Source of the DNA: a virus
Virus record (IMG/VR): IMGVR_UViG_3300000117_000003
DNA: 41,176 nucleotides
Reading direction: 5' to 3' (one strand)
The notes beneath the pieces were generated by a model. It saw only the letters and a list, made by a program, of their open reading frames with translations, was not told the origin of the DNA and made no database searches. How positions within the stretch are numbered: the stretch's first letter is position 1; the number at the start of each line of letters is the position of its first letter. This document shows positions 1-41,176 of the stretch, piece by piece. Made by a program: the position numbers and the translations under genes.

Positions 1-670
1 CGAAGTTAAAGCTGATGATAATGAGATCTATGTAGATCAAGTAGGTGCTACAGCAAATATAGATTTAGAACAACTTGGTAGCGGTAACATAATAGGTGGA
101 CTTTTATCAGCACATGGATCTATGACTCCGTTTGATCTCGATGGTGCTACGATGACATTAGATGTAAATTTGATTGGTAACAATAACAAGATGCTTGGCG
201 ATATTAACTCAGATACATTTACAGGTGTATTTGATTTAGATGGTGATACTAACTCTTACACAATACAAGTAGATCCTACGAACACTTATAGTGCTGATAA
301 TGCAAATGTTAATGTAGACGTAGACGGAAGTACAAATACATTTACGCTTGATCTAGCTACTAATAGTTTATCTAGTGGAGCAGATATAGACACAATAGTT
401 CAAGGTTCATCTAACACAGTTAATATTGATCTCGATGTAGACTCAGCGACAAACTATATTGATCTCGATGGAGATTCTAATACTGTAAACTATGATGGAG
501 ACGGATATGCAGGCGGTTATTTCAAGCTTGAACATGATGGTAACTCAAGGTCGTTTACGGTGGATCAACAGTCTACTTTGGATAATGATTGGCTGCGCAT
601 TGTGTCTGACGGAAACAACGGAACGGTATGCGTTAATCAGGATGATCAAGGCACAGCAGTTGGATGTTGA
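1..670 (+). CDS. Curlin-like (CsgA/CsgB-type) repeat protein, 3' part (codons start at nt 2). The 5' part with the signal peptide is 41051..41176 across the circular junction; the full ORF is about 248 aa.
   Basis: The frame is open from nt 2 to TGA 668-670 and continues in frame from ATG 41051 (nt 1-49 = 41128-41176). It holds about eight imperfect ~22-aa units of curlin type (hydrophobic-x-hydrophobic-x-Q/D-x-G-x-x-N-x-hydrophobic-x-hydrophobic): IYVDQVGATANIDLEQLGSGN, FDLDGDTNSYTIQVD, VDVDGSTNTFTLDL, IVQGSSNTVNIDLDV, IDLDGDSNTVNYDG, FTVDQQSTLDN, IVSDGNNGTVCVNQ. It lies immediately downstream of the csgF/csgG homologues. Confidence 0.6.
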   Translation, partial: EVKADDNEIYVDQVGATANIDLEQLGSGNIIGGLLSAHGSMTPFDLDGATMTLDVNLIGNNNKMLGDINSDTFTGVFDLDGDTNSYTIQVDPTNTYSADNANVNVDVDGSTNTFTLDLATNSLSSGADIDTIVQGSSNTVNIDLDVDSATNYIDLDGDSNTVNYDGDGYAGGYFKLEHDGNSRSFTVDQQSTLDNDWLRIVSDGNNGTVCVNQDDQGTAVGC

Positions 671-1688
671 TATAGGAAGTATTACAGAACTCAACGGAAA
701 CACCAGAGTAGTAAGAGATAAACCATACGAAAGTGCTATAGACTTTTCTCTTAATGCTATGGATAAACTTGAAACTGCTAAAGGCAGAATGGGTGTTACG
801 TTTAGAGATGAAACTACAATACGTCTAACAGAACACAGCAATGTTATTATTGATGAGTTTGTGTTTGATCCAAATCCAAGTAAGTCTAGCATGGCTCTTA
901 ACTTTGTTAAGGGTACTGGTAGATTTATATCCAGTAAAAAGAAACGTATACCTAACGATAATATTGTTGTAAGAACACATGCTGCTACCATTGGAATAAG
1001 AGGTACAGACTTTACAATAACTGTAAAAGAAACTGGAGAAGCTCTCGTAATACTTTTACCTGATGAGTTTGGAGATGCTAGTGGAGAGATAACAGTTAAT
1101 ACTGCATTAGGTCAAGTCATATTAAATAGACCTTATGAAGCTACAACTGTTTATAACTTTGAGACAGCTCCAACACCAGCAGTAATATTAGATTTAACTT
1201 TAGACATGATTGATAACATGTTAATTGTCAATCCTCCAGAAACTATCCAACAAGAAACTGAAGAATCTAATGCAGTAGCAGACAATATTCTTGATGTCGA
1301 TTTCTTAGAGTTTAGTGAGCTAGAAGAAGATGGATTAGCTGAAGATGAACTTGAATATACTGAGTTAGATATAGATTATCTTGCTGCTAATTTTCTTGAG
1401 GATCTTTTAGACATTATTCAAGAAGTAGATGAGTTATCTAAAGCAGACAAAGCACTGTCAGCCGATGGTATCAAAGGTACTGCTATTGGTTATGATAGCG
1501 ACACTCAAATAAATACATTTGTAAACGATAGTGAAGTTAAGTTTATTAGACAAGTAGAAGATAACTTACAAATGCAAGTATCTAAAGATGGCTCTTATAA
1601 CATCCGTATAGATCAAAGTGGAAAAGTAAATCAGGTAACAACGAATGGCGGTAGTTCATCTACCATAACAATCAAACAAGGTAGCTAA
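492..1688 (+). CDS. FecR-domain (LipL45-like) protein, probably exported or a lipoprotein; likely start at 534/537
   Basis: FecR-type pattern: GRMGVTFRDETTIRLTEHSNVIIDEF...ALNFVKGTGRFIS...VVRTHAATIGIRGTDFTITV...ALVILLPD...GEITV. An acidic linker follows, and the C-terminus YNIRIDQSGKVNQVTTNGGSSSTITIKQ resembles a curlin unit. Mets at 534/537 give MMVTQGRLRWINSLLWIMIGC, which looks like a signal peptide plus lipobox. Downstream of these, the only candidate starts before the FecR domain (which begins ~672) are ATG 642 and TTG 660, neither of which gives an export signal. Confidence 0.6.
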   Translation: MMETDMQAVISSLNMMVTQGRLRWINSLLWIMIGCALCLTETTERYALIRMIKAQQLDVDIGSITELNGNTRVVRDKPYESAIDFSLNAMDKLETAKGRMGVTFRDETTIRLTEHSNVIIDEFVFDPNPSKSSMALNFVKGTGRFISSKKKRIPNDNIVVRTHAATIGIRGTDFTITVKETGEALVILLPDEFGDASGEITVNTALGQVILNRPYEATTVYNFETAPTPAVILDLTLDMIDNMLIVNPPETIQQETEESNAVADNILDVDFLEFSELEEDGLAEDELEYTELDIDYLAANFLEDLLDIIQEVDELSKADKALSADGIKGTAIGYDSDTQINTFVNDSEVKFIRQVEDNLQMQVSKDGSYNIRIDQSGKVNQVTTNGGSSSTITIKQGS

Positions 1689-1691
1689 ACA

Positions 1692-2177
1692 ATGAAATTA
1701 AAATTCTCAAAGATTAAAAACCTAATAGGAGCTGTAGCACCAACAATCGGTACAGCATTAGGTGGAAGTATGGGTGGTACAGCAGCTAAAATGGTAGCTG
1801 AAGTTTTAGGCTGTGAACCAGAGCCAAAGAAACTTGAAGCAGCAGTACAAAATGCAACACCAGAACAATTAGCAGAACTAAAGAAAATAGATAAAGACTT
1901 TGAAATAAAAATGAAAGAATTAGATGTCGATTTATATGCTTTAGAAACTGCTGATATCCAAGATGCTAGAGATTCATTTAGAGAAGATTGGACTCCAAAA
2001 TTATTCGGAATGGTTTCATTATTAGCATTTGTTGGATATATTTTTACAGTCACAATTATGCCTCCTGATCAAAATTCAGACACAATAGTCAGTCTTGTAC
2101 TAGGTTACCTTGGCGGTCTAGTGTCAGGGATATCTAGCTTTTATTTTGGAGCATCAAATAAAGAAGAAAAACAATAG
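1692..2177 (+). CDS. Holin-like membrane protein (resembles the 3-TM GTA-type holin family)
   Basis: Gly/Ala-rich N-terminus, a coiled segment (TPEQLAELKKIDKDFEIKMKELDVD...ADIQDARDSF), then W-x-P followed by hydrophobic helices (LFGMVSLLAFVGYIFTV, IVSLVLGYLGGLVSGISSFYFG). This layout is typical of that holin family. It is the last gene before attP. Confidence 0.5.
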   Translation: MKLKFSKIKNLIGAVAPTIGTALGGSMGGTAAKMVAEVLGCEPEPKKLEAAVQNATPEQLAELKKIDKDFEIKMKELDVDLYALETADIQDARDSFREDWTPKLFGMVSLLAFVGYIFTVTIMPPDQNSDTIVSLVLGYLGGLVSGISSFYFGASNKEEKQ

Positions 2178-2539: not shown

Positions 2540-2602
2540 ATGAAGCAAAAACAGTTATGGCGACCTTCTAGGATCACACACAATGGAGGAGACCTAAAAT
2601 GA
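2540..2602 (+). CDS. Possible 20-aa leader ORF translationally coupled to int
   Basis: ATG 2540 is preceded by GGGAGAGA. Its stop TGA (2600-2602) overlaps the int ATG (2599-2601) as ATGA. It is too short to judge. Confidence 0.15.
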   Translation: MKQKQLWRPSRITHNGGDLK

Positions 2603-3501
2603 AAATGAAAGAATTTTACGATAAACATAAAGAAATGCTATGGAATGAGTCATGTGAGCAACATAGAGTAGAAAACATAAGGAAGATCAAAAAGTTTTTT
2701 ACTTATGAAGACATAGCATCGAGAGATATTGATGATGTAAAAGAAGTGGATGTGGATCTTTTCATAAACCACTTACACAAAGTTGAAGGATTAGCAAAGT
2801 CTACCTGTAACCGCTACATTGCTGCTATCTCAGGATTCTTTAAACTGGCAGTTAAGTATCGTTATATTAAAGACAATCTAAAGATTAAACAGACAAAAGA
2901 AATACTGTCTCGCCCACGTTATTTTACTGAGGAAGAAATAACAAAAGTAAATGAAATATTAGACAACAGCCGTCATCCGTGGGTAAAACATTTCTTTACG
3001 CTTGGTCTAATGACAGGTATGCGAAAAGGCGAAATATTATCTATAGGTTTAGATAAAGAAGAATGTAAGAAACAAGGTAAAACTTATGGTGTTATATCTA
3101 AAGATCGCAAGATAGTACATCTACATCAAACTAAAAACGGACATGATAGGATTGTTCCTTTGAACGATGATGCTAACAACGCATTACTCGCATTGAACGA
3201 CAAACCAAGTTCGTTTTATACCCAAAAGAGTTTTTATAACACTTGGCAAAAAGCTAAGAAATGTGTTGTCGGTAATGACAATAACTTTGTGTTCCATGTT
3301 ACACGGCATACTTGTGCTACAACTTTAGCTAATGATCATGGTGTACCTACAGTCTTGATTGCCGAGATATTAGGGCATAGATCAATGGATACAACTAAAA
3401 GATATGTTCACGGTAAAGAAAAAAACTTATCGGCAATAATGAATCAATTAACAGGAATTTCAAACAATAGAAGAGAGAAAGGTAATGCGATTAATCAATG
3501 A
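2599..3501 (+). CDS. int: Tyrosine recombinase / phage integrase
   Basis: Catalytic signature: TGMRKGEIL (Arg I), HVTRHTCATTLA (H-x-x-R box) and GHRSMDTTKRYVH (His plus Tyr nucleophile). There is an N-terminal SAM-like core-binding region. It is adjacent to the tRNA-like attP. Confidence 0.93.
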   Translation: MKMKEFYDKHKEMLWNESCEQHRVENIRKIKKFFTYEDIASRDIDDVKEVDVDLFINHLHKVEGLAKSTCNRYIAAISGFFKLAVKYRYIKDNLKIKQTKEILSRPRYFTEEEITKVNEILDNSRHPWVKHFFTLGLMTGMRKGEILSIGLDKEECKKQGKTYGVISKDRKIVHLHQTKNGHDRIVPLNDDANNALLALNDKPSSFYTQKSFYNTWQKAKKCVVGNDNNFVFHVTRHTCATTLANDHGVPTVLIAEILGHRSMDTTKRYVHGKEKNLSAIMNQLTGISNNRREKGNAINQ

Positions 3502-3955
3502 AAAAGAACAAATCTTGATTATGACAAGTAATCATGATATAAAAAAAGAACATTCTAAAGGGAGAGGTAAAGAAGATATGTTCAAACATAAGCAAGCGTA
3601 TCGTCTACAAATGTTACGAAGGAAACATGGGTTAACTACAAGGAAACTTGCAGAAAAATTAGGTGTTTCAAACGGTATTGTTAGTAGATGGTGTAGGGGA
3701 GATGCATATCCGACAAGAAAGCATGTCAGAGTGATCTGTGAATATTTTAAAGTTGAGCCTGCATGGTTAATATACGGTATTGACGACAAGCCACAAGAAA
3801 ACGATTTAAGTTTTGTATACGACAGTCTCAATGATAAAAATAAAGATAGTTTACTAGATATTGCTAGAGCGTTATTAAATGCACAAATAAACTACAATAA
3901 AACAGGGATAGACGAGGAGGTGAGTAATGGGACTAATGGTGACAGGGAAGGATAG
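3485..3955 (+). CDS. XRE/CI-like helix-turn-helix regulator (alternative start 3578)
   Basis: HTH motif: LTTRKLAEKLGVSNGIVSRWCRGDAYPTRKHVRVICEYFKVEPAWLIYG. ATG 3578 is preceded by GGGAGAGG. The gene lies next to int. Confidence 0.7.
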   Translation: MRLINEKEQILIMTSNHDIKKEHSKGRGKEDMFKHKQAYRLQMLRRKHGLTTRKLAEKLGVSNGIVSRWCRGDAYPTRKHVRVICEYFKVEPAWLIYGIDDKPQENDLSFVYDSLNDKNKDSLLDIARALLNAQINYNKTGIDEEVSNGTNGDREG

Positions 3956-4686: not shown

Positions 4687-7317
4687 ATGGAGAACATTAT
4701 GAAAAAAAGTAATGTGATTGATGAAGTTTTGAGAGAAAGAAAGATGCTTGAAAGAGGTAAAGACAGGTATCTTAAGAGATACTTAGGAGACGATGGGCAA
4801 TTAGACAAAAGAAGGTCTAGTCATAATAACCCTCATAATATAATTAAAGGAGCTTTGTCTAAAGTATCTAAAGATATCCAAGAAAGCATAGAAAAAGAGA
4901 AAACTAAAGAAGGTGGTAGACCGTCAAGATGGTATTCAGAGATGAAGGATTTGGATGTCGATATCTTAGCTTACTTAGGTTTAGTTACATGTTTTGAAGC
5001 TGTAACTCAAAGTCTTTCCCATACTTCATGTATTGTTAAGATAGCTGAAAGAGTAGAAAGAGAAATATGGTCTAAAGAATTAAGAGATTTTGATAACAAC
5101 TTACCTAAAGAAGATAGATTTCTAAAAGGTGTTGTCGATAAAGTAACTAAAGAACACTCATCAGAAAAATACAGAAAGAACGCTTTGAGTGCTATAGCTA
5201 GGAAAAAAGGATTTAAATCTAAGTTTAAAGAAAGATGGAAAGGTAAAGATAAGATACCTTTTGCTGAACCTGTAATCAATGCTGTCTTACGAACATCAGG
5301 TGTCTTTGAGATATGGGAAAAGTCTATACCTAAGAAGACACATAAGATGGTCGGGTTAACTTATGAAGCAAGACAGATGCTAGATAAGATGGATTTCGAT
5401 TCTATGTGGAACGAACCCATGTTAGCACCTATAACTTATAAACCTATTGCATGGGAATCTATAGATACTGGTTGTTATAAAGATGATGTAGTAGCTAGTT
5501 TTGTACCTTTAGTCAGAGCTGCAAATTCACAACAAAGACAAGCGATAAGACATCAGTTAAAACTTAAGAAACTAGCAGGTGAAACTCCAGATTACATCAA
5601 AGCCCTTAATGCTATCCAAGATACCCCTCTTACGATTAATACATTCATGTTAGAGGTCGTAAACTTTTGTTGGGAGTCAGGAGAGCTTGTCGATAAATTC
5701 CCAAGAAAGGAATACTACGAATACCCTGATAGACCTGAGAACTATGATGAGTTATCAGATGAAGAAAAGAAAGGGTGGCGATTGAAGTGTAAAGAACGCA
5801 TGATTAAAAACAGAGAAGTAGATGGTGCTAGGGCAGTATTTGATCAAGACATTCGTACTGCTAGAGAACTAAGCGAATACGAGGAGTTCTATTTACCGTG
5901 GAATCTATGTTTTCGTGGTCGTTGCTACCCTGTACCATTTTTTAATTACCATCGTGACTCACATGTTAAATCATTATTTTTATTTAGAAACAAACAGAAA
6001 GTAACTAGCGATGGGTTTAACTGGCTGTGCATCCATATAGCAAACGTAGGTGACTTTGCTCGTATATCAAAAGCATCATTAGATGACAGGTTAAAATGGA
6101 CTGTAGATAACCAAGAGATGATCTATGATTGTGGTCGAGATTTTATTACCAACATAGATAAATGGAAATCTGCTGATAAACCATTTGAGTTTCTAGCGGC
6201 TTGTCATGAGTTCGCTAATATTATTGATGATGAAGATTATGAATGTGGTCTACCTATAGCGATTGATGGTAGCTGTAGTGGAGTCCAACATTATAGTGCT
6301 GCTTCATTATCGGATACTGATGGTGCTATGGTCAACTTAACTAAGACAGACAAACCTCAAGATGTTTACCAGAATGTAGCTGATAGAGTAGTGGAAAAAC
6401 TTAAGAAGATTAAAGATGGAATTGACATTGATCAGACTATTTTATCTTTGTTCCCTAATTATGAAGGTAAACTAAATTCTACAGCATACAGAGAACGTAA
6501 GAAGACATTTCCACAGTTAGCTCAATTGTGGTTAGAGTACGGAGTCAGTAGGTCTACTGTAAAAAGAAACTGTATGACTTATGGGTATTCAAGTAAGAAG
6601 TATGGATTCTCAGACCAACTCTTTGATGACTTTATGAAACCACTAAAAGATAAAGTTATGAGAGGTGAAATCAACAAACATCCATTCCAAGATGTAGAAA
6701 GAAAAGCCACTTCATTTTTAGCCGCGATAAATTACCAAACCATAGAAGAAGTTATATCGAGTGTTGCAGGTGGTATGAAGTTTTTTCAGTCTACTGTAGA
6801 TGCTTTGACTGCTGAAAATAAATCTATGCGTTGGGAAACACCCATTGGTTTTCCTGTAGTACAAAAGTATACCCATTGGAACGCTAAGAAAGTCAGGATC
6901 TTCTTATACGATAGAGTGGCTATGGTAGAGAAAAGAAGTCAAATAACTGTGAGAGAGCGTGATGAAACTAAGATTGATAGGAAAAAATCAAGATCAGGTA
7001 TATCACCTAATGTAATTCACTCTATGGATGCTTCTCATCTCATGTCTACAGTTCTCTATTGTAAGAAAGAGGGTATCAATGATTTCTTTGTTATACATGA
7101 TTCATTTGCTACTACAATCAATGATACTTCAAGACTCTATGGTTGTGTCCGTGAGGCATTCATAGACATGTATAAAGACTGGTGTATGTATGCTGATATA
7201 CAGGATCAGATACGACAGCAGTTAAATAACCCGAACACAAACAAACTAAAAGAAATACCAAAGAAAGGCAAACTTAATCTGGAGGATATCAGAGAGAGTG
7301 CTTACTGTTTTTCATGA
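4687..7317 (+). CDS. T7-like single-subunit DNA-dependent RNA polymerase
   Basis: Motif A DGSCSGVQHYSA (T7 DGSCSGIQHFSA), motif B RSTVKRNCMTYGYSS, motif C IHDSFAT (T7 VHDSFGT), and an aromatic C-terminal foot YCFS. The SD is TAGGAGGGG. Confidence 0.97.
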   Translation: MENIMKKSNVIDEVLRERKMLERGKDRYLKRYLGDDGQLDKRRSSHNNPHNIIKGALSKVSKDIQESIEKEKTKEGGRPSRWYSEMKDLDVDILAYLGLVTCFEAVTQSLSHTSCIVKIAERVEREIWSKELRDFDNNLPKEDRFLKGVVDKVTKEHSSEKYRKNALSAIARKKGFKSKFKERWKGKDKIPFAEPVINAVLRTSGVFEIWEKSIPKKTHKMVGLTYEARQMLDKMDFDSMWNEPMLAPITYKPIAWESIDTGCYKDDVVASFVPLVRAANSQQRQAIRHQLKLKKLAGETPDYIKALNAIQDTPLTINTFMLEVVNFCWESGELVDKFPRKEYYEYPDRPENYDELSDEEKKGWRLKCKERMIKNREVDGARAVFDQDIRTARELSEYEEFYLPWNLCFRGRCYPVPFFNYHRDSHVKSLFLFRNKQKVTSDGFNWLCIHIANVGDFARISKASLDDRLKWTVDNQEMIYDCGRDFITNIDKWKSADKPFEFLAACHEFANIIDDEDYECGLPIAIDGSCSGVQHYSAASLSDTDGAMVNLTKTDKPQDVYQNVADRVVEKLKKIKDGIDIDQTILSLFPNYEGKLNSTAYRERKKTFPQLAQLWLEYGVSRSTVKRNCMTYGYSSKKYGFSDQLFDDFMKPLKDKVMRGEINKHPFQDVERKATSFLAAINYQTIEEVISSVAGGMKFFQSTVDALTAENKSMRWETPIGFPVVQKYTHWNAKKVRIFLYDRVAMVEKRSQITVRERDETKIDRKKSRSGISPNVIHSMDASHLMSTVLYCKKEGINDFFVIHDSFATTINDTSRLYGCVREAFIDMYKDWCMYADIQDQIRQQLNNPNTNKLKEIPKKGKLNLEDIRESAYCFS

Positions 7318-17397: not shown

Positions 17398-17712
17398 TCA
17401 ACTGTTATTGAGGTAATCGGCTACAATTTCTTCACCGATAATGTAAGCGTACATATTAACGACTTTCTCAGGTTCGCTTAAGTCTGTGAATACTTCACCG
17501 AAACAATATTGCTCATAATCTTTGATATGATTAATGACTTCAAAAGCCATATCACCTAACCATTTTTTAGCTTGGTATCTGCCGATAATGTAGTAATCAG
17601 TATTAAAAACTTCATGGTGTAGATCATCTTTGTTTTCTTCTATCCATGCTTCATCAACATCATTTAGAAAATCATTAAAATGCTGTTTAATTTCTTGTTT
17701 CTTATAGTCCAT
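17398..17712 (-). CDS. Hypothetical acidic protein (104 aa), first gene of the leftward block
   Basis: ATG 17712 is preceded by TAACTAAGGGAGAAATCAAG. Confidence 0.6.
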   Translation of the reverse strand: MDYKKQEIKQHFNDFLNDVDEAWIEENKDDLHHEVFNTDYYIIGRYQAKKWLGDMAFEVINHIKDYEQYCFGEVFTDLSEPEKVVNMYAYIIGEEIVADYLNNS

Positions 17713-17929
17713 CTTGATTTCTCCCTTAGTTATTTATATATAGTCTCTCTACTTACTATGAATATAGTATATAGCTATGATTACTAAATGTAAACCTTTA
17801 TCATTAACTAAATTACTAATGAAAACAATTAGTTATCTCCATTTATAAACTAAATGACATCTAATCTATCAAAATAATCAAAATAAGGGAGTTTTGGCGA
17901 CCCATAGGAATAGAAACTATGAGTTTCCT

Positions 17930-18120
17930 GACATGATGATTATCTGAAGATATTATTATCATATATATAATAACTATAAGAGTAATCACCATAAAAACAT
18001 TAGTTATATATAATGCATTGGTATCATATCTCTCTCTCTTCTCCCTTAATGATAACCAATGATAATAATTATTATTATAGATAACTAAAGATTACTAATA
18101 CTAATGATAATCATCATGTC
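17930..18120. repeat. 15-bp perfect inverted repeats flanking a 161-bp AT-rich segment
   Basis: GACATGATGATTATC (17930-17944) is the exact reverse complement of GATAATCATCATGTC (18106-18120). The interior is non-coding and AT-rich and has ATGATAA reiterated. Confidence 0.85.
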
Positions 18121-18130
18121 TCTCATAATT

Positions 18131-18270
18131 AACTTGAGATAACTTATGATCATAACTTGAGATTAAACGACTCCTTATGATCATTTGTTATCTTGAGTTA
18201 GTTTTATGATGACTAATGTTAATGACTAATGTTATCTGATGATGACTTGAGATGGCTAAGGATGGCTAAG
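18131..18270. repeat. Iteron cluster (candidate origin, packaging site or operator array)
   Basis: AACTTGAGAT x2 (18131, 18154) plus ACTTGAGAT (18245) and CTTGAGTT (18192). CTTATGATCAT x2 (18143, 18174) includes the 12-bp palindrome TTATGATCATAA. There is a tandem ATGACTAATGTTA x2 (18209-18234) and a tandem GATGGCTAAG x2 (18251-18270). Confidence 0.85.
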
Positions 18271-18717
18271 GTTAAACCAAGATTGTTCTTAAGAGATATT
18301 ACCTCATCCCAATAAAAATCAGACAAGGACACAAGATTAAGTATCTGTCAACCATAGAAACCTAAGTAAATCAATGACTTATAGGATTCCTACGTTAAAA
18401 AAGTGACTGCAGGTGGGTTAAAATGTTGTCGATTTCAAAAATGTCGCTAAATGCTTTGTTCTTATTTCATTATTTAGGCTTTGTTGAGTAGAGTCTAAAT
18501 TTCCAAAAAACACTAAAAGAGAAACTTATGAAACTTACATTTGAAGAAGACCTAATAAACAACGGTTTCTTCCACGTTCTACCAGAGTTTGAGATACAGA
18601 TATCCAGATTTGAGACTACTAGCAGACCTAAGAACAAACTTATGTCTCTACGGTTTAGCTGGTTATTGTGGTCGATCTGGCTTGAGTTCAACTAATACAT
18701 AAAAAGAGGTTACACAC

Positions 18718-19311
18718 ATGGCACTTGAGAGTGGCACATACATCAACAGTCTAAACGCATCGAACCCAGCAGCTACAGACTCCCTAAGTCAAGCTGACGA
18801 TCATTTACGTCTAATCAAAAGCACTGTTTTAGCTTCCTTTCCCAACGTATCTGGAGCTGTCACAGCGACACACACAGAGTTAAATCTTATTGATGGAGTT
18901 ACAGCCACTACAGCCGAACTTAATATCTTAGATGGTGTTACGTCTACTGCTAGTGAACTTAATATACTCGATGGAGTCACCAGTACGGCTGCTGAATTAA
19001 ACCTCTTAGACGGCAGTACAGCAGGTACAGTAGTTGCCTCAAAAGCCATAGTAGCTGATGGTAACAAAGATATTAGTGGTGGTAGAAACATTACGATTAC
19101 AGGAGAAATAGACGCAGCCACTTTAGACATCTCAGGTAACGGTGATGTCGATGGGACACTCGATGTGGGTGTCTTAGACTTAGGTAACTGGACTATTGAC
19201 CAAGTAGGGACTGACCTACGTTTTCTCTATGATGGTACAGCCAAATTCAAATTAACTTCAGGTGGTGTAATGACTACCGTAGGGGATATCACAGCTTCAG
19301 GAAGTATCTAA
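18718..19311 (+). CDS. Tail-fibre-like / virion protein with ELNxLDGVT repeats
   Basis: Four 13-aa repeats (ELNLIDGVTATTA / ELNILDGVTSTAS / ELNILDGVTSTAA / ELNLLDGSTAGT, about 18877-19020). The same module recurs in the 1225-aa fibre (EELNILDGVTSTAAEINLLDGSSANTVVNSKAVIY). It is the first gene of the rightward late block. Confidence 0.6.
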   Translation: MALESGTYINSLNASNPAATDSLSQADDHLRLIKSTVLASFPNVSGAVTATHTELNLIDGVTATTAELNILDGVTSTASELNILDGVTSTAAELNLLDGSTAGTVVASKAIVADGNKDISGGRNITITGEIDAATLDISGNGDVDGTLDVGVLDLGNWTIDQVGTDLRFLYDGTAKFKLTSGGVMTTVGDITASGSI

Positions 19312-33805: not shown

Positions 33806-36800
33806 ATGGCAAAAACAAGTTTTTATTCAAGCTCTGGAGCTACAAGCACCGAAACTGATGCTATTGAAGGTAGCGTAAATGCAGCAGCAGCCAGTCAAGC
33901 AGCAGCAGCTACATCAGAAACCAATGCTGCTGCAAGTGCTACATCAGCAGCTTCATCGGCTTCAAGTGCAAGCTCAAGTTCTAGTAGTGCGACTACTGCA
34001 AAAACAGCTTCGGAAACTGCTAAGACAGCTAGTGAAACAGCCAAGACTGCCAGTGAAGCCGCCAGAGATTTAGCACTTACTTATAGAGATGCAGCAGCAG
34101 CAAGTAGCTCAACTTCGACTACAAAAGCCAATGAAGCATCAACTTCAGCAACAGCAGCAGCCTCTAGTGCTACGGCAGCAGCTTCAAGTGCATCGGCAGC
34201 AAGTTCATCTCAGTCAGCAGCCGCGTCAAGCGCGACTTCGGCTGCCTCAAGTGCTGCTAGTCTAACTGATGAAGCCATACAAGATATTGTCGGTGCTATG
34301 ATGTCTGGTAATACTGAATCTGGTATTACTGTAGATTATCAAGATTCAGATGGAACAATTGATTTTACTATCGGAACATTGAATCAATCGACCAGTGGTA
34401 ATGCAGCTACAGCCACAGCACTACAAACTACCAGAACAATACATGGTGTCTCTTTCGATGGTACATCCAACATAGATTTATCTGAAGTTATCAGCGATAC
34501 AGTAGGAGCAATGTTTAGCTCGAATACAGAATCGGGAATAACAGTTACCTACCAAGACTCAGATAACACGATTGATCTAACAGTAGGAACTCTAAACCAA
34601 GATACTACAGGTCTAGCTGCAACAGCTACAGCACTAGCTACAGCAAGAACGATAGGTGGAACTTCATTTGATGGTACTTCAAATATAGATGTAGCTTTAG
34701 CTACTCTTGCTACCAATGTTGTCGTAACAGATAACGAAAGTGGTAACAACGATTGTGCGATAACATTTGTTAATGATCTTGATGGTGCTGCAAGTATTGG
34801 TCTTCAAAGTGATGGTAATTTATTTTATAACCCATCTACAGGTACACTAACTGTAGAAAACATATCGGTATCAGGTACTCAAACGATTGTCGATAGTGTC
34901 ACCATGAACGCAAGTAACCAAGTAGTATTTGAAGGTAGTTCGGCTGATGCTCATGAAACTTTCCTTACATCAATTAATGCAACAGCAGATAGAACCATAT
35001 CGTTACCTAACGTATCAGGTACTCTACCAGTATTAGCAGCAGTCTCAGACACTCAAATTACGTCTACTCCTGAAGAACTAAATATCTTAGATGGAGTAAC
35101 CTCAACAGCAGCAGAGATCAATTTATTAGATGGTTCATCGGCTAATACTGTAGTTAACTCAAAAGCAGTTATCTATGGATCTAGTGGTGAACTAGCAGGT
35201 GCTTTAAGTACAGCAGCCCAACCAAACATTACCAGTGTTGGAACTCTAACAGCATTGACTGGTGGTACTGGTGACTTCAATTGGGACTCAAATACATTAG
35301 TAGTAGATTCTTCAACAAATCGTGTTGGGATTGGAAACGCTGCACCAGATGTGAGTCTTGATTTGGGATCAAACACTGATGCTGTTCACATGCCTAGTGG
35401 TACAACAGCACAAAGACCAGCTTCACCAGCAGCAGGTTACTTTAGATACAATTCTGAGACTTCACAAATGGAATTGTATACGGATGAATGGGGAGCAGTA
35501 GCAGGAAGTGGCGGCAGTGGTTCAGCAGTAGAGACTCAAATATTCGTGGGAGATGGTAGTGATGTAACATTTACATTGACTACAGCACCAGCCAACGAAA
35601 ACGATTTGATTGTAATGATAGATGGTGTCTTCCAAGATCACAGTGTCTACTCATTGTCTGGTAACGTACTTACTTTTGCTACTGCACCAGCTAATACTCG
35701 TAAAATAACTGTTTATCACTTTGTGGGTGCTGTAGGTGGATCTAACCATTCTATAGCGACCATGACTGGAAATAACAGTACAGACACATTGAACCTACCG
35801 ACTGCTCCAGTACACGAAAACAATGTTCAAGTTTACTTTGATGGTATCTATCAATCTAAGTCTAACTTTAGTGTCTCAGGTACAACTATTACATTTTCTA
35901 CTGCACCTCCAACTGGTGTTTTAGTAGAAGCTATATTAGCCAAAGCAACTAACATATCTACAGCAACCCAATTGGTAGACGCAGACTCGGATACACTCAT
36001 TCAATGTGAAGAAGGGACTGATGACGACACTATACGTTTTGATGTAGCAGGTACAGAAGTATTAACCATAGCTGAAGGTGCTTCTAATACAGAGATTAAA
36101 TTTAAAGGTACAGCTCCAGCACTAATAATAGGAGATGCAGGTGCAGAAGATACTAAAATCGTTTTTGATGGTAACGCTCAAGACTATTATATTGGTCTTG
36201 ATGATTCTGCCGATGATCTGGTAATAGGTAAAGGTTCAGCAGTAGGAACTACACCCGCTATTAGTATTGATTCTAGTGAAGATGTAACTCTTGCTGGACA
36301 TTTAGTATTTGCAGATAGTAAAAATGCTAAGTTTGGTGCTGGCTCAGATTTACAAATCTACCACGATGGTTCTAATAGTTATATTGCTGATTCGGGGACA
36401 GGTGCTTTATTAATTGCTTCAAATGATTTTCAAATACTAAACGCTGCCGCTAGTGAGAATATGATTACCTGTGCTGAAAATGGAGCAGTAAATCTTTACT
36501 ATGATAATGCACTTAAATTAAATACTAGAAGTACAGGTATAGATATAAACGATCAAATACATTTCCCTCATTCAGTTATTGGTGATGATCTTTTTGATAC
36601 TGACTCACTAGGTTTAGCTTGTGACCATACCGAAAGTATGGGGTTTGGTATAGAAAATGCCGATGGTTCTTTTACTGAAAGAATGAGACTAAGTAATAGT
36701 GGTGATCTGTCTTTGTTAACAGATGGTGCAGAAATCCAACTGTACTACACCGAATCTCGTAAATTCATTACCAATAGTGGTGCTTCAGTTACGATTAAAC

Positions 36801-37483
36801 AGATAGATAATAATACAACAAATGCTTACATAGACTTTACATCTTGGACGGACTCAAGCCTGATGCGTTTGAAGAATCATGGTGGTTTACTGTTTGGTAC
36901 AACTACAAACCAATTATATGACTCTACTTCAGAAACAGGAATAGTTTTTCATGATGATAATTCCTATGGCTCTTGTGGCGCACACTTAGAAATGGCTAAT
37001 TCTGCTGACTCAGGATGGTCTTTACAGTATTTGCAAAGATTTAATTGGAACTCTGGTGATGATGGAAGGTTCTTACAGTTTGCTATTAATGGTGGTTCTG
37101 ATGTAGGTAACATTACTTATGATGGTACGAATTTTGCCGTTACTAATGGTTCTGACTATAGATTAAAAGAAAACATTGTTGATTACACAGGTGGTTTAGC
37201 GAAAATAAATGCCTTAAAAGTTAGGTCATTTAATAAAAAAGAAGGTGCATCAAAAGATATTACGCAACAAGGATTTATTGCTCACGAATTATCAGAGCAT
37301 ATTCCTAATGCAGTTATAGGTACAAAAGATGCAATGAAAGTAGATGAAACTGGAGAGACTGTACCCGATTATCAACAAGTTACTAGAGAAGCATTAGTGC
37401 CTTATTTAGTATCTGCAATCCAAGAACAACAAACAATCATTGATGACCTGAAATCAAGACTTAAAACATTAGAGGACGCATAG
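33806..37483 (+). CDS. Tail fibre (1225 aa) with C-terminal intramolecular chaperone (peptidase S74-type) domain
   Basis: Ala/Ser/Thr-rich N-terminal rod, then a duplicated module containing NAATATALQTTRTIHGVSFDGTSNI (phage fibre repeat type). Also LQIYHDGSNSYIAD. The C-terminal GSDYRLKENIVDY...GFIAHEL...LVSAIQEQQ...RLKTLEDA is typical of self-cleaving chaperone domains. Confidence 0.85.
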   Translation: MAKTSFYSSSGATSTETDAIEGSVNAAAASQAAAATSETNAAASATSAASSASSASSSSSSATTAKTASETAKTASETAKTASEAARDLALTYRDAAAASSSTSTTKANEASTSATAAASSATAAASSASAASSSQSAAASSATSAASSAASLTDEAIQDIVGAMMSGNTESGITVDYQDSDGTIDFTIGTLNQSTSGNAATATALQTTRTIHGVSFDGTSNIDLSEVISDTVGAMFSSNTESGITVTYQDSDNTIDLTVGTLNQDTTGLAATATALATARTIGGTSFDGTSNIDVALATLATNVVVTDNESGNNDCAITFVNDLDGAASIGLQSDGNLFYNPSTGTLTVENISVSGTQTIVDSVTMNASNQVVFEGSSADAHETFLTSINATADRTISLPNVSGTLPVLAAVSDTQITSTPEELNILDGVTSTAAEINLLDGSSANTVVNSKAVIYGSSGELAGALSTAAQPNITSVGTLTALTGGTGDFNWDSNTLVVDSSTNRVGIGNAAPDVSLDLGSNTDAVHMPSGTTAQRPASPAAGYFRYNSETSQMELYTDEWGAVAGSGGSGSAVETQIFVGDGSDVTFTLTTAPANENDLIVMIDGVFQDHSVYSLSGNVLTFATAPANTRKITVYHFVGAVGGSNHSIATMTGNNSTDTLNLPTAPVHENNVQVYFDGIYQSKSNFSVSGTTITFSTAPPTGVLVEAILAKATNISTATQLVDADSDTLIQCEEGTDDDTIRFDVAGTEVLTIAEGASNTEIKFKGTAPALIIGDAGAEDTKIVFDGNAQDYYIGLDDSADDLVIGKGSAVGTTPAISIDSSEDVTLAGHLVFADSKNAKFGAGSDLQIYHDGSNSYIADSGTGALLIASNDFQILNAAASENMITCAENGAVNLYYDNALKLNTRSTGIDINDQIHFPHSVIGDDLFDTDSLGLACDHTESMGFGIENADGSFTERMRLSNSGDLSLLTDGAEIQLYYTESRKFITNSGASVTIKQIDNNTTNAYIDFTSWTDSSLMRLKNHGGLLFGTTTNQLYDSTSETGIVFHDDNSYGSCGAHLEMANSADSGWSLQYLQRFNWNSGDDGRFLQFAINGGSDVGNITYDGTNFAVTNGSDYRLKENIVDYTGGLAKINALKVRSFNKKEGASKDITQQGFIAHELSEHIPNAVIGTKDAMKVDETGETVPDYQQVTREALVPYLVSAIQEQQTIIDDLKSRLKTLEDA
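33998..34060 (+). repeat. 3 x 21-nt in-frame tandem repeat (AKTASET x3) inside the fibre gene
   Basis: gcaaaaacagcttcggaaact / gctaagacagctagtgaaaca / gccaagactgccagtgaagcc. Confidence 0.8.
34271..34696 (+). repeat. Tandem duplication of a ~71-aa fibre module
   Basis: EAIQDIVGAMMSGNTESGITVDYQDSDGTIDFTIGTLNQSTSGNAATATALQTTRTIHGVSFDGTSNIDLS versus EVISDTVGAMFSSNTESGITVTYQDSDNTIDLTVGTLNQDTTGLAATATALATARTIGGTSFDGTSNIDVA. Coordinates are approximate. Confidence 0.8.
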
Positions 37484-37484
37484 A

Positions 37485-38420
37485 ATGGCAATAACAAAAG
37501 CATCTCTCATAGACCTTAATGGTCAAGAACTCATACTAGACGCAGATGCAGATACTTCGATAACTGCTGATACTGATGATCGTATTGATTTTAAAACTGG
37601 TGGTACTGATAGGGTACATATTACTTCGGCAGGGCATTTATCAACAGGTGCAACAAGCATAACTAATGGCGGTGGGTATAATAAAGTTATTCAAGTTAGT
37701 GGTACTGAGGGATGTTTCAGTGCTATATCAGGTAGTAATGAAGGCTTGTTTGCACAAAATGGTGTTAATACTCAAGTAATTAATAGAGCAAATGGTTACA
37801 TGGAGTTTCGCGCAAACAATACTGAATACTTTAGAATTGCAGCAGGTCAAATAGATGTAAAATCTGCTGACTTAACAATGGATGACAATCGCTCATTGTA
37901 TATAGGCGATGGTAATGATTTAAGACTTTATCACGATGGCTCAACCTCATATATAACAGATACAAGCTCAGCGGCTTTAGTAATAAATGGGGGTAATAGT
38001 GGCGGAGTAAAATTACAAGCAGGTAGTAACTCAAGTCATAATTCACTCAATGTTACAGATAAAAATGGAAATTCATTGTTTAGAGTGCAAGGTGATGGTG
38101 ATTATTACCATGCTGGCTCTGCAATTTCTGATAGAAATTTAAAAGAAAATATTGTGGATGTTTCTGATGGTTCTTTGGAATTAGTAAAACAATTAAAACC
38201 AAGAACTTTTAATTTTAAATCTTCAGAAGATTTTGATGGCTCAAGTAGAACTGGATTTATAGCACAAGAGGTGGCAGATGTTATGACTACCAAACATAGG
38301 GTAGCATCAGGAAAAGATGGTGAAAATTATATGGGAATTGACCCTGTAGGTTTGATAGCACATTTAACAAAAGCAATACAAGAACTTGAAGCAAGACTTA
38401 AAACACTAGAGGACTCATAA
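37485..38420 (+). CDS. Second tail fibre/spike (311 aa) with its own S74-type chaperone domain
   Basis: LRLYHDGSTSYITD (paralogous to the large fibre). The C-terminal ISDRNLKENIVDV...GFIAQEV...LTKAIQELEARLKTLEDS has the same ending as the large fibre. Confidence 0.8.
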   Translation: MAITKASLIDLNGQELILDADADTSITADTDDRIDFKTGGTDRVHITSAGHLSTGATSITNGGGYNKVIQVSGTEGCFSAISGSNEGLFAQNGVNTQVINRANGYMEFRANNTEYFRIAAGQIDVKSADLTMDDNRSLYIGDGNDLRLYHDGSTSYITDTSSAALVINGGNSGGVKLQAGSNSSHNSLNVTDKNGNSLFRVQGDGDYYHAGSAISDRNLKENIVDVSDGSLELVKQLKPRTFNFKSSEDFDGSSRTGFIAQEVADVMTTKHRVASGKDGENYMGIDPVGLIAHLTKAIQELEARLKTLEDS

Positions 38421-38422
38421 AT

Positions 38423-38914
38423 ATGGCACTTACAAGCAGTGGCGCAATAGCCATGTCAGAGATCGGAACAGAACTATCAAACGCAAGTAGAAGCCTAAGA
38501 ACCCTTAGTGCTGCTGCTGGTAAATCAACTCCAGATTCATTTAGTGAGTTTTATTCATTCAGTGCTGGCGGTAGTTTTTCATTAGGCAACATAAGTGGCT
38601 CTACCAGTCAGGCATTTAAGACTACAAGTACAACATCAACTGGAATCAATCAGACAATTACTCTTAGATTTAACTTAACTAAAAATGGTAATGATGCCAA
38701 TCAGTATATTGTGGTCTATAAAAATGGTAGTTCCCAAGTCCAGATTACTTCAGGTAATTCAGATTTAACTGGTGTTACATCGAGTGATACATTTTATGTT
38801 GCAGCTTACAATTCTCAAGGTGAGCAGTTTGTAGGAACTATAACAGTGACAGATCAAACTAATGGAAATCAGTTAGACCAAAGTAGTATTAACTTTTATC
38901 GCGAGGAAGAATAA
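38423..38914 (+). CDS. Hypothetical tail-associated protein
   Basis: 163-aa Ser/Thr-rich ORF directly after the fibre genes. The assignment is positional only. Confidence 0.5.
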   Translation: MALTSSGAIAMSEIGTELSNASRSLRTLSAAAGKSTPDSFSEFYSFSAGGSFSLGNISGSTSQAFKTTSTTSTGINQTITLRFNLTKNGNDANQYIVVYKNGSSQVQITSGNSDLTGVTSSDTFYVAAYNSQGEQFVGTITVTDQTNGNQLDQSSINFYREEE

Positions 38915-39102
38915 TGGAATCTACTGATAAAGATTTAATTGATATAGCAGCAGGAGCAACTGGTGTAGCCACATACGCTCAAATTTTACCCAATATGGCT
39001 GCTTTATTTACCATCGTTTGGCTGGGAATACGCATATTAGAAAGCGATACAGCACAATCAATCAAAGATAAGGTTTTAAAACTATGCAAATCCAAAGATT
39101 AA
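38914..39102 (+). CDS. Small holin candidate
   Basis: 62 aa with hydrophobic stretches (IAAGATGVATYAQIL, MAALFTIVWLGIRIL) and a charged C-terminus. It overlaps the endolysin start. Confidence 0.5.
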   Translation: MESTDKDLIDIAAGATGVATYAQILPNMAALFTIVWLGIRILESDTAQSIKDKVLKLCKSKD

Positions 39103-39500
39103 AAGATCAACTAAAGATACATGAAGGTGTAGTCTTAAAACTTTATAAATGTAGTCAAGGGTATTACACATGTGGTGTGGGTAGAAACATACAAGCTAAC
39201 GGTATTTCTATGGAAGAAGCTGAACTCATGTTGGCTAATGATATAGACGATTGCATCGTGGATCTAAAGAGAAACATTGGTTTTTTTAATGATCTACCTG
39301 AGACAATACAGGAAGTTATGGTCAATCTATGTTTTAACATTGGTATAAACAAATTGTTAAACTTTAAGAAGACTATAGGTTTACTAAGAGATGAAAAATA
39401 CCTAGAAGCTGGCGATGAAATTTTACGATCAAAATGGTCAAAACAAGTAGGACAGAGAAGTCATGATTTAGCAGACATGATCCGAAGCTGTGCATCCTAA
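39084..39500 (+). CDS. T4-type (GH24) lysozyme endolysin
   Basis: KIHEGVVLKLYKCSQGYYTCGVGRN aligns with T4 lysozyme [23 protein letters not shown]. The E-x8-(D/C)-x5-T triad is present as E-x8-C-x5-T. There is no N-terminal TM/SAR segment. Confidence 0.88.
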   Translation: MQIQRLKDQLKIHEGVVLKLYKCSQGYYTCGVGRNIQANGISMEEAELMLANDIDDCIVDLKRNIGFFNDLPETIQEVMVNLCFNIGINKLLNFKKTIGLLRDEKYLEAGDEILRSKWSKQVGQRSHDLADMIRSCAS

Positions 39501-39853
39501 TGTTAGACGATGTAATACGTCTAGTTAATGACGTAGGTTTCCCAATAGCCAGTGCTGGTGCTTTAGGTTTCTTTATATGGAAGTTGATTAACAGAATAAT
39601 CGACAACATGGAAAAGAAGATAGACCTACTCGATGAAAAACTACAGAGCATCATTAATACTTCTGAAGAACGATTAGCCAATAAACTAGATAGTCAACAT
39701 GGAATCATTGTCGCCTTAATAGATAGAGTGAGGGCATTGGATAACCAAACAATACGTCAAGATGTCTTACTAAAGACACTTCTTGGTGTTCCTAATTTAA
39801 TTGAAATAGATAAAATTGCTAAGGCGGATCGAGATGACCAACGAAAAGATTAA
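39500..39853 (+). CDS. Membrane-anchored coiled-coil protein (i-spanin-like or holin-like; function unresolved)
   Basis: N-terminal TM (VGFPIASAGALGFFIWKLI) followed by heptad-like helical sequence. ATGTTAG overlaps the lysozyme stop. No embedded or adjacent o-spanin lipoprotein ORF was found. Confidence 0.45.
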   Translation: MLDDVIRLVNDVGFPIASAGALGFFIWKLINRIIDNMEKKIDLLDEKLQSIINTSEERLANKLDSQHGIIVALIDRVRALDNQTIRQDVLLKTLLGVPNLIEIDKIAKADRDDQRKD

Positions 39854-40301
39854 GCTATTCTTCTTAGCAACTTTACCTGTATTAGTATTAATTACATTTG
39901 TAGAAATCAAAAGTGATGAATTATCTTATAGATTTAAGTCACCTTCTTTTTCAAGGATTAATACTTCAAGTCATTATTTGACTATAGAAAACCAAGAGTC
40001 TACTAGAAGACAATCAATAAAGGATCAACTAGAAGCCTATCAAGATGATATAGAAAGAGAAGCAGATAACTCTACGTTGAGTCGTTTTATTCGTAACTTA
40101 GAATCTCGTATCTATGCACAGCTATCGCGACAGATGGTAGAGCAATTATTCGGAGAGACACCACAAACAGAAGGTAAGCTTGAATTGGAAGGTAACACGA
40201 TTGAATACATGGTGAAAGATGAACTTATTACGCTTACGATTACAGATGAAACAGGCGGTACAACTACTATTACTGTCCCTATCGGTAGCTTTACTTTCTA
40301 G
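39834..40301 (+). CDS. csgF: CsgF homologue (curli assembly/transport component); ORF open from 39816
   Basis: Signal peptide MTNEKIKLFFLATLPVLVLITFVEIKS. YRFKSPSFSRINTSSHYL aligns with the E. coli CsgF N-terminal FQFRNPNFGGNPNNGAFL. The C-terminal IEYMVKDELITLTITDETGGTTTITV aligns with [29 protein letters not shown]. Both alignments are from memory of the E. coli protein. Confidence 0.75.
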   Translation: MTNEKIKLFFLATLPVLVLITFVEIKSDELSYRFKSPSFSRINTSSHYLTIENQESTRRQSIKDQLEAYQDDIEREADNSTLSRFIRNLESRIYAQLSRQMVEQLFGETPQTEGKLELEGNTIEYMVKDELITLTITDETGGTTTITVPIGSFTF

Positions 40302-41067
40302 TTGTACTCCAAGATATACAGCATTACTCGAAGAAGGTGGTATTCCTTATATAGTAATAAAAAAAGCTTCAATACTTGAGTTACAAAATGAAGAACTTTT
40401 AAAACTAAAGCCAGCCATAAGAAAACCTGTAATAGCTATATATCCTAATAGCTTTTTAGATCATACAGGACAAAGAAAGTCTAATGGTAACTTTGCTTTA
40501 TTTTCTACAGCAATTACTCAAGCACCAGAAGCTTTCTTAATAAGAGCTTTAAAACATGCAGCTAATGGTGAGTTTTTCCAAGTGGCAGAAAGAGTTGGTT
40601 TAGACTCATTGACTAAAGAAAGGCAATTAATAAGAAGCACACGCGAAACTTTTGACGAGGAGAGTGTCGTCAAACCTCTTTTATTGGCAGGGTTATTAAT
40701 GCAGGGTGCTGTACTAAGCATAGATACTAACGTAAAAACAGGTGGTATAGGAGCTAGGTACTTAGGTATCGGATCAAGTAAAGAATATAGAGAAGACATA
40801 ATTACTTTGTCTCTTAGGCTTGTATCTGTGTCTACTGGTGAGGTTCTAATAGAAGTTTTAGTTAGTAAGAGTGTTATATCAGTAGGTGTATCTCAAGATT
40901 TATTTAGGTTTATATCTAATGGTACAAAGTTAGTAGAAATAGAAGGTGGAGCAAGTGAAAACGAAAGTACATCTATAGCCTTACAACAAGCTATTGAAGA
41001 AGGAGTGTTGAATATAATTAATATTGGACTCAACAGAGGGTATTGGAAAAATGAAGAAACTAATTAG
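40246..41067 (+). CDS. csgG: CsgG homologue (outer-membrane curli secretion channel lipoprotein); ORF open from 40219
   Basis: Lipoprotein signal MKQAVQLLLLSLSVALLSSC. VIAIYPNSFLDHTGQ, FSTAITQAPEAFLIRALK, LTKERQLIRSTRE, TGGIGARYLGIGSSKEY and LRLVSVSTGEVL are collinear with E. coli CsgG (VSVYNIQDETGQ, FSTAVPQSATAMLVTALK, LLNERKIIRAAQE, SGGVGARYFGIGADTQY, LRVVNVSTGEIL). Confidence 0.9.
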   Translation: MKQAVQLLLLSLSVALLSSCTPRYTALLEEGGIPYIVIKKASILELQNEELLKLKPAIRKPVIAIYPNSFLDHTGQRKSNGNFALFSTAITQAPEAFLIRALKHAANGEFFQVAERVGLDSLTKERQLIRSTRETFDEESVVKPLLLAGLLMQGAVLSIDTNVKTGGIGARYLGIGSSKEYREDIITLSLRLVSVSTGEVLIEVLVSKSVISVGVSQDLFRFISNGTKLVEIEGGASENESTSIALQQAIEEGVLNIINIGLNRGYWKNEETN

Positions 41068-41176
41068 TATGCTAGATTGTACTTTATTTAGTGTAGCTGT
41101 AATAGCAGGTAGCGTTTATTTATTTAACGAAGTTAAAGCTGATGATAATGAGATCTATGTAGATCAAGTAGGTGCT
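41051..41176 (+). CDS. 5' part of the curlin-like repeat protein gene (signal peptide plus first repeat); continues at nt 2 after the circular junction
   Basis: ATG 41051 overlaps the csgG 3' end by 17 nt. MKKLISMLDCTLFSVAVIAGSVYLFNEVKA|DDNEIYVDQVGA gives a Sec-type signal with a VKA cleavage-like site. The frame is open to the window end and in frame with 2..670. Confidence 0.6.
   Translation, partial: MKKLISMLDCTLFSVAVIAGSVYLFNEVKADDNEIYVDQVGA
41128..41176. repeat. Terminal 49-bp exact duplication of nt 1-49 (circular closure overlap)
   Basis: cgaagttaaagctgatgataatgagatctatgtagatcaagtaggtgct is present at both window ends. Confidence 0.98.

Follow-up and report, generated by a model that had tools for sequence, protein, structure and literature searches.

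The locus that spans the two ends of IMG/VR virus record IMGVR_UViG_3300000117_000003, a marine phage DNA of 41,176 nucleotides (hereafter the window, meaning this whole stretch), raises a twofold question: what protein is encoded by the gene that is broken across these ends, and would that protein be assembled into curli-like fibres on the infected cell? The comparisons described below indicate that the gene very probably encodes a curlin-family protein secreted as a type VIII secretion system (T8SS) substrate. A fuller reading, in which a strongly acidic curlin-repeat protein is secreted, adopts a two-sheet beta-solenoid of about nine rungs, is exported via CsgG-CsgF and stacks into fibres or a surface layer, is regarded as probable when all of its parts are taken together, and actual fibre formation, considered by itself, is expected with only a little more confidence than doubt.

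Bases 41128-41176 are identical to bases 1-49, which constitutes an exact 49-bp terminal overlap, the sole one detected, and corresponds to an arbitrary break point in a circular or concatemeric assembly. When bases 41051-41127 are joined to bases 1-670, a single open reading frame (ORF) of 747 nt is obtained on the plus strand, running from the ATG at 41051 to the TGA at 668-670 and encoding 248 amino acids. The 5′ part of this curlin-like gene (41051-41176) begins with the start codon and encodes the signal peptide (residues 1-30) along with the onset of the mature protein. The remainder (1-670) is read in codons from nucleotide 2, which is the correct frame because the base at position 1 closes a codon, and specifies nine degenerate rungs followed by a C-terminal loop closed by C236 and C248. 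An earlier interpretation of the window made from its letters without database searches (the sequence-only reading) had proposed that an ORF starting at 41051 continues in frame through 2-670, that it overlaps the csgG stop by 17 nt, and that a linear annotation would split or miss the gene. All of this proved correct: the joined translation yields the 248-aa protein, the csgG ORF ends at 41067, and the program-made ORF list contains only a 182-aa fragment (122-670) of the gene. A sequence search returned 2,805 homologues of the curlin-like protein, and full-length 248-aa homologues with identities of 87-96% are encoded on independent contigs; in contig L002 (52,961 bp, where it lies mid-contig) and in contig L003, a 94%-identical 248-aa gene is unbroken and is flanked by csgG and a FecR-like gene. 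Because the gene is contiguous in these records, the junction represents the true continuity that the sequence-only reading had singled out for checking, and the 49-bp repeat is therefore an arbitrary assembly break that falls within the curlin-like gene. A contig assigned to a metagenome-assembled genome (MAG), PBPT01000002.1 (60,834 bp), carries the curlin gene at both ends and thus appears to be a further circular phage contig, with its break within or close to this gene.

The encoded protein contains 35 Asp, 26 Asn, 25 Gly and 23 Thr residues, and its mature part has two Cys residues, C236 and C248, which are invariant in 35 relatives, in agreement with the initial description of an Asp/Asn/Thr-rich product ending with two Cys. 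Its N-terminus follows a signal-peptide pattern consisting of MKK, a hydrophobic stretch and EVKA|DD (residues 1-30), and residues 2-26 form a helix in the AlphaFold2 (AF2) model. The 35 aligned relatives differ in their N-termini, which are hydrophobic and finish on small residues, and the mature start DNEIY.DQ.G that follows is invariant; such a combination is what a comparison of proteins with a cleaved signal peptide would show, and it bears out the proposed cleavage-like site VKA|DD.

The motif G-x-x-N occurs seven times, mostly at a spacing of 22-28 residues, plus an intermediate pair at 85 and 92, and the mature part can be divided into 18 half-repeats of about 11 residues (10-17 aa) each, which correspond to nine rungs. 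The best ungapped self-alignment segments have scores of 77, 71, 67, 63 and 61, as compared with 36.6 ± 5.9 for 300 composition-preserving shuffles, one of which reached 78. Repeats had been predicted as about eight units of ~22 aa; their existence is supported by this self-similarity and by the strand-arc-strand model described below, and they amount to nine rungs. Positions 3 and 5 are hydrophobic in most half-repeats, most motifs are followed by an arc of four residues that includes Gly, and Asn occupies position 1 in 9 of the 18. Position 7, which is Gln in curlins, is Gln in three half-repeats, with one further Gln shifted by a residue, and is otherwise mostly Leu, Val or Ile, with D, G, H or S also found. 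Asp or Glu is present at the outward position 6 in 11 of the 18 half-repeats and is often also the first residue of the arc. The motif Q/D-x-G-x-x-N, by which the repeats were originally defined, is off by one in register and fits the first repeat only (EQLGSGN); the recurring motif is D-hydrophobic-[D/Q]-G-x-x-N. Likewise, the protein is strongly diverged, as had been claimed, but not by the replacement of Gln with Asp, since Asp flanks the Gln position, which itself is mostly taken by Leu, Val or Ile. The net charge is about -33, versus about -6 for Escherichia coli CsgA.

Conservation is unevenly distributed along the protein. The first half-repeat is the most conserved and the most canonical, with an identity of 0.70 to the family consensus versus 0.29-0.52 elsewhere, and the last repeats retain Gln, so that both terminal half-repeats display the canonical curlin pattern. 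If the ends of the molecule serve as subunit interfaces, such conservation of the first half-repeat would be expected. In one homologue, P0046 (339 aa; alignment A1, columns 146-247), an internal insertion of ~90 aa repeats FTGLYNFTGDTNTFTIQVDPTNTY... rungs; rungs are therefore able to duplicate as a block, though the family is otherwise of near fixed length.

The AF2 model, computed from the 35-sequence alignment, has a predicted local distance difference test score (pLDDT) of 83.3 and a predicted template-modelling score (pTM) of 0.75, and contains 16 strands between residues 43 and 240 in strand-arc-strand order, with arcs of 2-9 residues. The best structural matches in BFVD are uncultured-phage proteins with the UniProt name 'Curlin associated' (template-modelling score 0.66-0.69, probability 1.0), and the weak, insignificant Foldseek matches in the PDB are mostly beta-helices. 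The model thus favours the two-sheet beta-solenoid fold for which an AlphaFold check had been suggested, with the parallel stacking of its rungs read from the strand pattern and the structural neighbours. A search for calcium-binding motifs gave no RTX- or thrombospondin-type Pfam match and a single [DN]-x-D-x-D-G site found by eye, so that calcium binding is treated as speculation.

In direct comparisons, the protein gave no significant match to curlins. It has no match to the Pfam family Curlin_rpt (PF07012) at E<=1, nothing significant among the NCBIfam CsgA/CsgB models (best CsgB, E=0.26, 11 bits) or in PHROGs, and an hhalign probability of 1.2% to E. coli CsgA alone; a profile of its close relatives retrieved no curlin from the PDB sequences. 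Apart from the PHROGs result, these outcomes count against a curlin identity, and the curlin link emerged only after relatives of 25-55% identity had been collected. A profile of the window's clade, searched against 1.84 billion cluster representatives, found 416 at E<=1e-3, of which the full-length ones are mostly 217-263 aa. Curlin_rpt was matched by 27 of 36 full-length members at 25-55% identity (best 9.9e-8), and two of them, P0196 (28.0 bits) and P0237 (28.3 bits), exceed the Pfam cut-off for this family (20.7 bits). A profile of seven distant members, P0196 and P0237 among them, built without any sequence of the window's clade, was aligned by hhalign with that clade over 206 columns at a probability of 99.85% (E=1e-30). 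The same seven-member profile gave two matches only at E<=1 in the PDB, the curlin fibril 8C50 (3.7e-6) and E. coli CsgA 8ENQ (0.04), and with the 36-member profile these values improved to 1.8e-10 and 0.003, respectively. In addition, the mature N-terminus DNEIYVDQVG of the window protein parallels DNAVYIDQVG of 8C50.

By this chain of intermediates, the protein is assigned to the curlin family transitively, the direct tests being negative; the curlin-profile search suggested by the sequence-only reading therefore failed as a direct match and succeeded via relatives. Bacterial curlins share the signature N-$-hydrophobic-$-hydrophobic-$-Q followed by an X-G-X-X arc, and a 'degenerate' class has been described in which the N/Q columns are partly replaced by hydrophobic residues and the arcs vary in length (Sleutel et al., 2023; PMC10192328). 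Judged by its sequence, the window protein fits this 'degenerate' class (PMC10192328), and the idea that it might represent a distinct beta-solenoid class was too strong.

The curlin-like gene is directly preceded by genes for the two components through which a curlin would leave the cell. The csgG homologue, an outer-membrane lipoprotein pore (40246-41067, plus strand), matches PF03783 (2e-44) and NF011731 (7e-41); its ORF is open from 40219, with a likely start at 40246 that gives MKQAVQLLLLSLSVALLSS|C with a lipobox. Aligned with the E. coli structures 3X2R/4Q79/6L7A (1.3e-38), it matches from the lipobox to the C-terminus, LLSS|C corresponding to LLSG|C, and the constriction loop TGQ...FSTA is conserved in part. 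The csgF homologue (39834-40301, plus strand) matches PF10614 (1.4e-17) and phrog_35372 (1.6e-39), and gave no direct sequence match to solved CsgF; the listed ORF starts at a TTG at 39816, and the ATG at 39834 gives the protein a signal peptide of its own, MTNEKIKLFFLATLPVLVLITFVEIKS. The earlier assignment of csgG is thus sound, and CsgF is likewise genuine. In all loci compared, the curlin-like family is encoded directly after csgG, including contig L008, where the Pfam-positive relative P0196 lies in the order csgG-curlin-FecR. In the record of Pelagibacter phage HTVC008M, gp016 is annotated as 'curlin-associated protein / CsgB'. The proposal that the protein is the substrate of the phage CsgG/F pair is supported by its signal peptide, its position after csgG and its curlin homology, and passage through CsgG would follow from these features.

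Taken together, these features suggest the following course of events. In an infected or lysogenised cell, the curlin-like protein would be made together with the phage-encoded CsgG lipoprotein pore and CsgF, and would enter the periplasm by the Sec system, where the signal peptide would be cut after VKA. It would then pass unfolded through the outer-membrane channel formed by the CsgG nonamer and CsgF, fold outside the cell, and assemble, by head-to-tail stacking, into curli-like fibres or a layer on the cell surface. Sec export, CsgG passage, extracellular folding and stacking are all taken by analogy from the E. coli pathway, and polymerisation and the biological role of the product are likewise proposals. 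The canonical terminal half-repeats, of which the first is the most conserved and the last retain Gln, are the features that speak for stacking, since conserved, canonical ends favour open, stackable edges.

A number of observations weigh against this fuller reading. Only about 4 of the 18 half-repeats have a core Gln, and the stacked Asp ladders of a molecule with a net charge of about -33 would repel one another unless they were neutralised by cations. The family is of near fixed length and its rungs are individually conserved, which means that a defined monomer fits as well as a fibre subunit; in bacterial curlins, the number of repeats varies widely (PMC10192328). Closure of the C-terminus by the Cys pair counts against stacking. 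A search of the whole circularised window with the family profile found no second curlin gene of the CsgB nucleator type, and Foldseek retrieved no significant match from the PDB and none of the solved curli fibrils; the parallel arrangement of the predicted rungs, as noted above, is read indirectly. Finally, no clumping was seen in cells infected with the related phage Melnitz, in which csgA/B were considered absent (Buchholz et al., 2022; PMC9004378).

Many of these observations would also be accounted for if the protein were a curlin-derived, non-polymerising solenoid monomer of nine rungs that resides in the periplasm or on the cell surface as a coat, an adhesin, or a plug or gate of a CsgG pore lacking CsgE; as a gate, it might help to time the permeabilisation of the envelope at lysis. 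A near-fixed length with individually conserved rungs, a degenerate core and an extremely acidic surface suit such a monomer, its last rung could be capped by the conserved C-terminal disulfide-type loop, and neither a CsgB-type second subunit nor CsgE is found among the neighbours. In many family members, however, the Cys pair is missing and the chain stops right behind the last motif; canonical half-repeats are kept at both ends, with the N-terminal one more conserved than any other part; and CsgF, which is known to couple curlin nucleation to the pore, is retained. A role of phage CsgGF in lysis timing has been proposed, with no aggregation seen (Buchholz et al., 2022; PMC9004378), and the cassette adjoins lysis genes in three different arrangements, which speaks for this explanation; such adjacency may, however, only reflect the insertion of accessory genes at a module boundary, and no lysis gene is annotated among the cassette neighbours in the myovirus HTVC008M. 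On balance, a non-polymerising monomer is considered unlikely, though not negligibly so.

A virion structural protein, i.e., a fibre or decoration protein built of beta-solenoid repeats, is a very improbable identity for the product. The gene lies a few kb downstream of the tail-fibre genes (33806-38420), beta-helices are common in tail spikes, and there is a weak match to a PHROG family labelled 'virion structural protein' (E=0.012). This match is not significant, however; holin-like and endolysin genes lie between the gene and the structural module; a cleavable Sec signal peptide, unusual for virion proteins, is conserved family-wide; and, in podovirus and myovirus backbones alike, the gene is invariably accompanied by csgG, csgF and the FecR-like gene. 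The idea that the joining of the ORF is spurious, with an overlap of 49 bp that is chimeric or due to chance and two halves that do not belong to one gene, has as its sole support the splitting of the gene by the ends of this contig, and is refuted to the point of being scarcely conceivable by the 87-96% identical full-length homologues and by the contiguous gene with the same neighbours in L002 and L003.

The constant partner of the curlin gene in all related loci, with conserved synteny, is a FecR-domain protein (633-1688, plus strand; PF04773, 1e-11; phrog_37870, 7.5e-66). With an open frame that reaches back to 492, its gene shares up to 179 nt (492-670), in a different frame, with the 3′ end of the curlin gene. 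The long form begins MMETDMQ.../MMVTQGRLRWINSLLWIMIGC... and contains a hydrophobic, lipobox-like segment, and the short form from the ATG at 633 has no export signal; the FecR-like versions of HTVC008M (gp017) and L008 have ordinary signal peptides and no such overlap. The C-terminus, ...IRIDQSGKVNQVTTNGGSSSTITIKQGS (1590-1688), reads like one and a half curlin repeats, with Q-x-G-x-x-N followed by S-x5-Q as in the repeat signature of E. coli curlins, and a similar tail is present in five diverged loci, namely the window, L001 (7640-7736), L002, L004 and L008. This 30-residue tail can be written as IRIDQ-x-GKVN....NGG.S.I.I[KR]QGS, and Q328, G330, K331, N333, N338, G339, G340, S343, I345, I347, Q349 and G350 are invariant in 25 close homologues. 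With the HMM (hidden Markov model) of the full-length curlin family, the FecR-like protein did not score above shuffled decoys, and none of the 25 FecR-like homologues matched Pfam Curlin_rpt. A C-terminal sub-profile was equalled by 6/5000, 6/5000 and 13/5000 decoys for three FecR-like proteins, by 251/5000 for a fourth, and gave no signal for a fifth. In an hhalign tiling, only the last tile stood out (P=0.0035 and 0.01 before allowing for the 10 tiles), and the AF2 model of the FecR-like protein has a pLDDT of 38.5. The curlin resemblance of the tail is thus suggestive only.

A more elaborate scheme can be built on this tail, and is put forward as a doubtful one: the FecR-like tail would dock on an edge of the solenoid and let its protein take the place of CsgB as nucleator, anchor or cap, the acidic solenoid would fold with Ca2+/Mg2+ of seawater, and a prophage may express the cassette. 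In that case, the FecR-like protein may not be an iron regulator, and a single phage curlin may have no need of CsgB. The Asp-laddered, Gln-poor solenoid, speculatively, would remain unfolded in the cell, and would fold and stack outside it in an RTX-like manner once cations neutralise its charges. Expression of the cassette from a prophage could make it a lysogenic-conversion trait.

The genes around the junction are all encoded on the plus strand and are tightly packed or overlapping. A gene for a 117-aa protein (39500-39853, plus strand), with an N-terminal hydrophobic segment and a coiled-coil-like remainder, precedes csgF, and the order of this gene, csgF, csgG, the curlin gene and the FecR-like gene recurs in HTVC008M and in several podovirus-like contigs. 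The 117-aa protein has 69% identity to its counterparts in L004-L007, 64% in L014 and 31% to HTVC008M gp012. It probably corresponds to the gene labelled 'HK' (histidine kinase) in published cassettes (PMC9599517); a scan of the protein detected no kinase domain and no significant Pfam domain, and its architecture is like that of an inner-membrane spanin. No CsgE, CsgC or CsgD domain was found among the neighbouring genes scanned. Alphaproteobacterial cassettes and those published for phages likewise have no components of the CsgB/CsgE/CsgC/CsgD type (PMC9599517), which are therefore not defining for the wider system. In L004-L007, the FecR-like gene is followed by a CHASE2 adenylate/guanylate cyclase.

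The cassette always adjoins lysis-type genes, in varying order. In the window, genes for a 62-aa membrane protein (38914-39102, plus strand) and an endolysin (39084-39500, plus strand; Phage_lysozyme, 5e-11) precede it and one for a 161-aa membrane protein (1692-2177, plus strand) follows it; in L004-L007, genes for a 160-aa membrane protein and a lysozyme come after the cassette (11477-12464 in L004), and in L002, a gene for a 160-aa membrane protein comes before it (5563-6045). For the 161-aa protein, a holin family with three transmembrane segments was considered; no such Pfam match was found, and the label was dropped. A scan of a genome collection with the alignment of close relatives found only five short MAG contigs (L010-L014), all with the same cassette, and no bacterial chromosomal copy. 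These contigs are binned in MAGs named Maricaulis, Candidatus Pelagibacter and Neomarinimicrobiota, and probably represent phage DNA mis-binned into bacterial genomes. A blastn search of phage genomes with the 3′ end of the window found nothing, and consensus scans for promoters and terminators gave fewer sites than shuffles and were uninformative on the limits of an operon.

Within the window, the cassette is situated between the holin-like/endolysin gene pair and a tyrosine integrase (2599-3501, plus strand; PF00589, 7.7e-21), from which it is separated by a 420-nt gap (2178-2598), and a Cro/CI-type helix-turn-helix (HTH) protein (3485-3955, plus strand). The phage appears temperate because these integrase and HTH genes follow the cassette, which, with lysis genes on one side and the integration module on the other, is situated in the manner of a moron. 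No tRNA gene that would mark an attachment site was found in the window. The genome is that of a mosaic podovirus with a single-subunit RNA polymerase, a primase-helicase and a family A DNA polymerase. For the DNA polymerase, identities of 43-45% are found with both the roseophage and the pelagiphage enzymes, and for the portal and a virion protein the identity to counterparts in Pseudomonas LUZ24/tf-like and other podoviruses is about 30%. Between 14717 and 17712, about ten small minus-strand ORFs lie within the otherwise plus-strand genome, and are followed by a sparsely coding region (17712-18718).

Genes of this kind have been reported before. CsgF, CsgG and a 'curlin-associated protein (CsgB)' were annotated in Pelagibacter phage HTVC008M (Zhao et al., 2013; genome record), and the operon was found in pelagimyophages, for which 'sibling capture' was proposed (Zaragoza-Solas et al., 2020; PMC7029224). 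In the Methylophilales phage Melnitz, csgGF was found, csgA/B was judged absent and a role in lysis timing was proposed (Buchholz et al., 2022; PMC9004378), and nine HTVC023P-type podovirus genomes were shown to share the arrangement HK-CsgF-CsgG-CsgA/B-FecR-(second CsgA/B)-(AC) (Wittmers et al., 2022; PMC9599517). The phage curli cassette was detected at all 65 GOV2.0 stations and is transcribed in ocean metatranscriptomes; phage curli export genes account for ~0.1% of assembled viral proteins at the surveyed stations, and an alphaproteobacterial origin of the cassette, with transfer from myoviruses to podoviruses, was inferred (PMC9599517). The cassette of the window is accordingly a type VIII secretion module already described in pelagiphages and no new kind of system, and the sequence-only reading amounts to a correct rediscovery, because both the cassette and its curlin-type gene had been published. 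Published accounts disagree as to the presence of csgA/B in these phages; the homology chain speaks for it.

Host aggregation ('sibling capture'), superinfection exclusion and import have been proposed as roles, and no experimental report of fibre formation by phage curlins was found in the literature searched. To our knowledge, the known hosts SAR11 and OM43 are without any curli genes. If fibres do form, some bacteria that rank among the most abundant in the plankton would acquire a transient adhesive surface upon infection, with effects on aggregation, superinfection, gene exchange and particle formation. The window offers a clean and complete example of the cassette, and permits a sequence-level account of how a phage curlin has drifted, towards a hydrophobic core, an acidic surface, a fixed set of nine rungs and a Cys-closed end.

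The closest known systems are the T8SS cassettes of pelagiphages of the HTVC008M and HTVC023P types, which have the same order of small membrane protein, CsgF, CsgG, curlin and FecR. Their curlin gene falls into the same size class, and the relatives compared again have a signal peptide; HTVC008M gp016 is 32% identical to the window protein over 84% of its length, and metagenomic podovirus-like versions are 57-94% identical. Unlike many published cassettes and L004-L007, the window has neither an adenylate cyclase nor a second curlin gene. With degenerate bacterial curlins and 8C50 (R15.5, Pontibacter korlensis), the window protein shares ~22-aa strand-arc-strand repeats, X-G-X-X arcs, an Asn column after the arc, alternating inward hydrophobic residues and a canonical first repeat, whereas its core Gln is mostly replaced by hydrophobic residues, its outward positions carry Asp/Glu, its rung number is near fixed and it has a C-terminal Cys pair. 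With E. coli CsgA/CsgB, it shares a Sec signal peptide, a first repeat with Q-x-G-x-x-N and a last repeat of the S/N-x5-Q type, and in E. coli curli the CsgG lipoprotein and CsgF are likewise encoded alongside; in contrast to E. coli CsgA, it has no Gly-rich N22 segment, its repeats begin directly after the signal peptide, and it comprises nine rungs instead of five.

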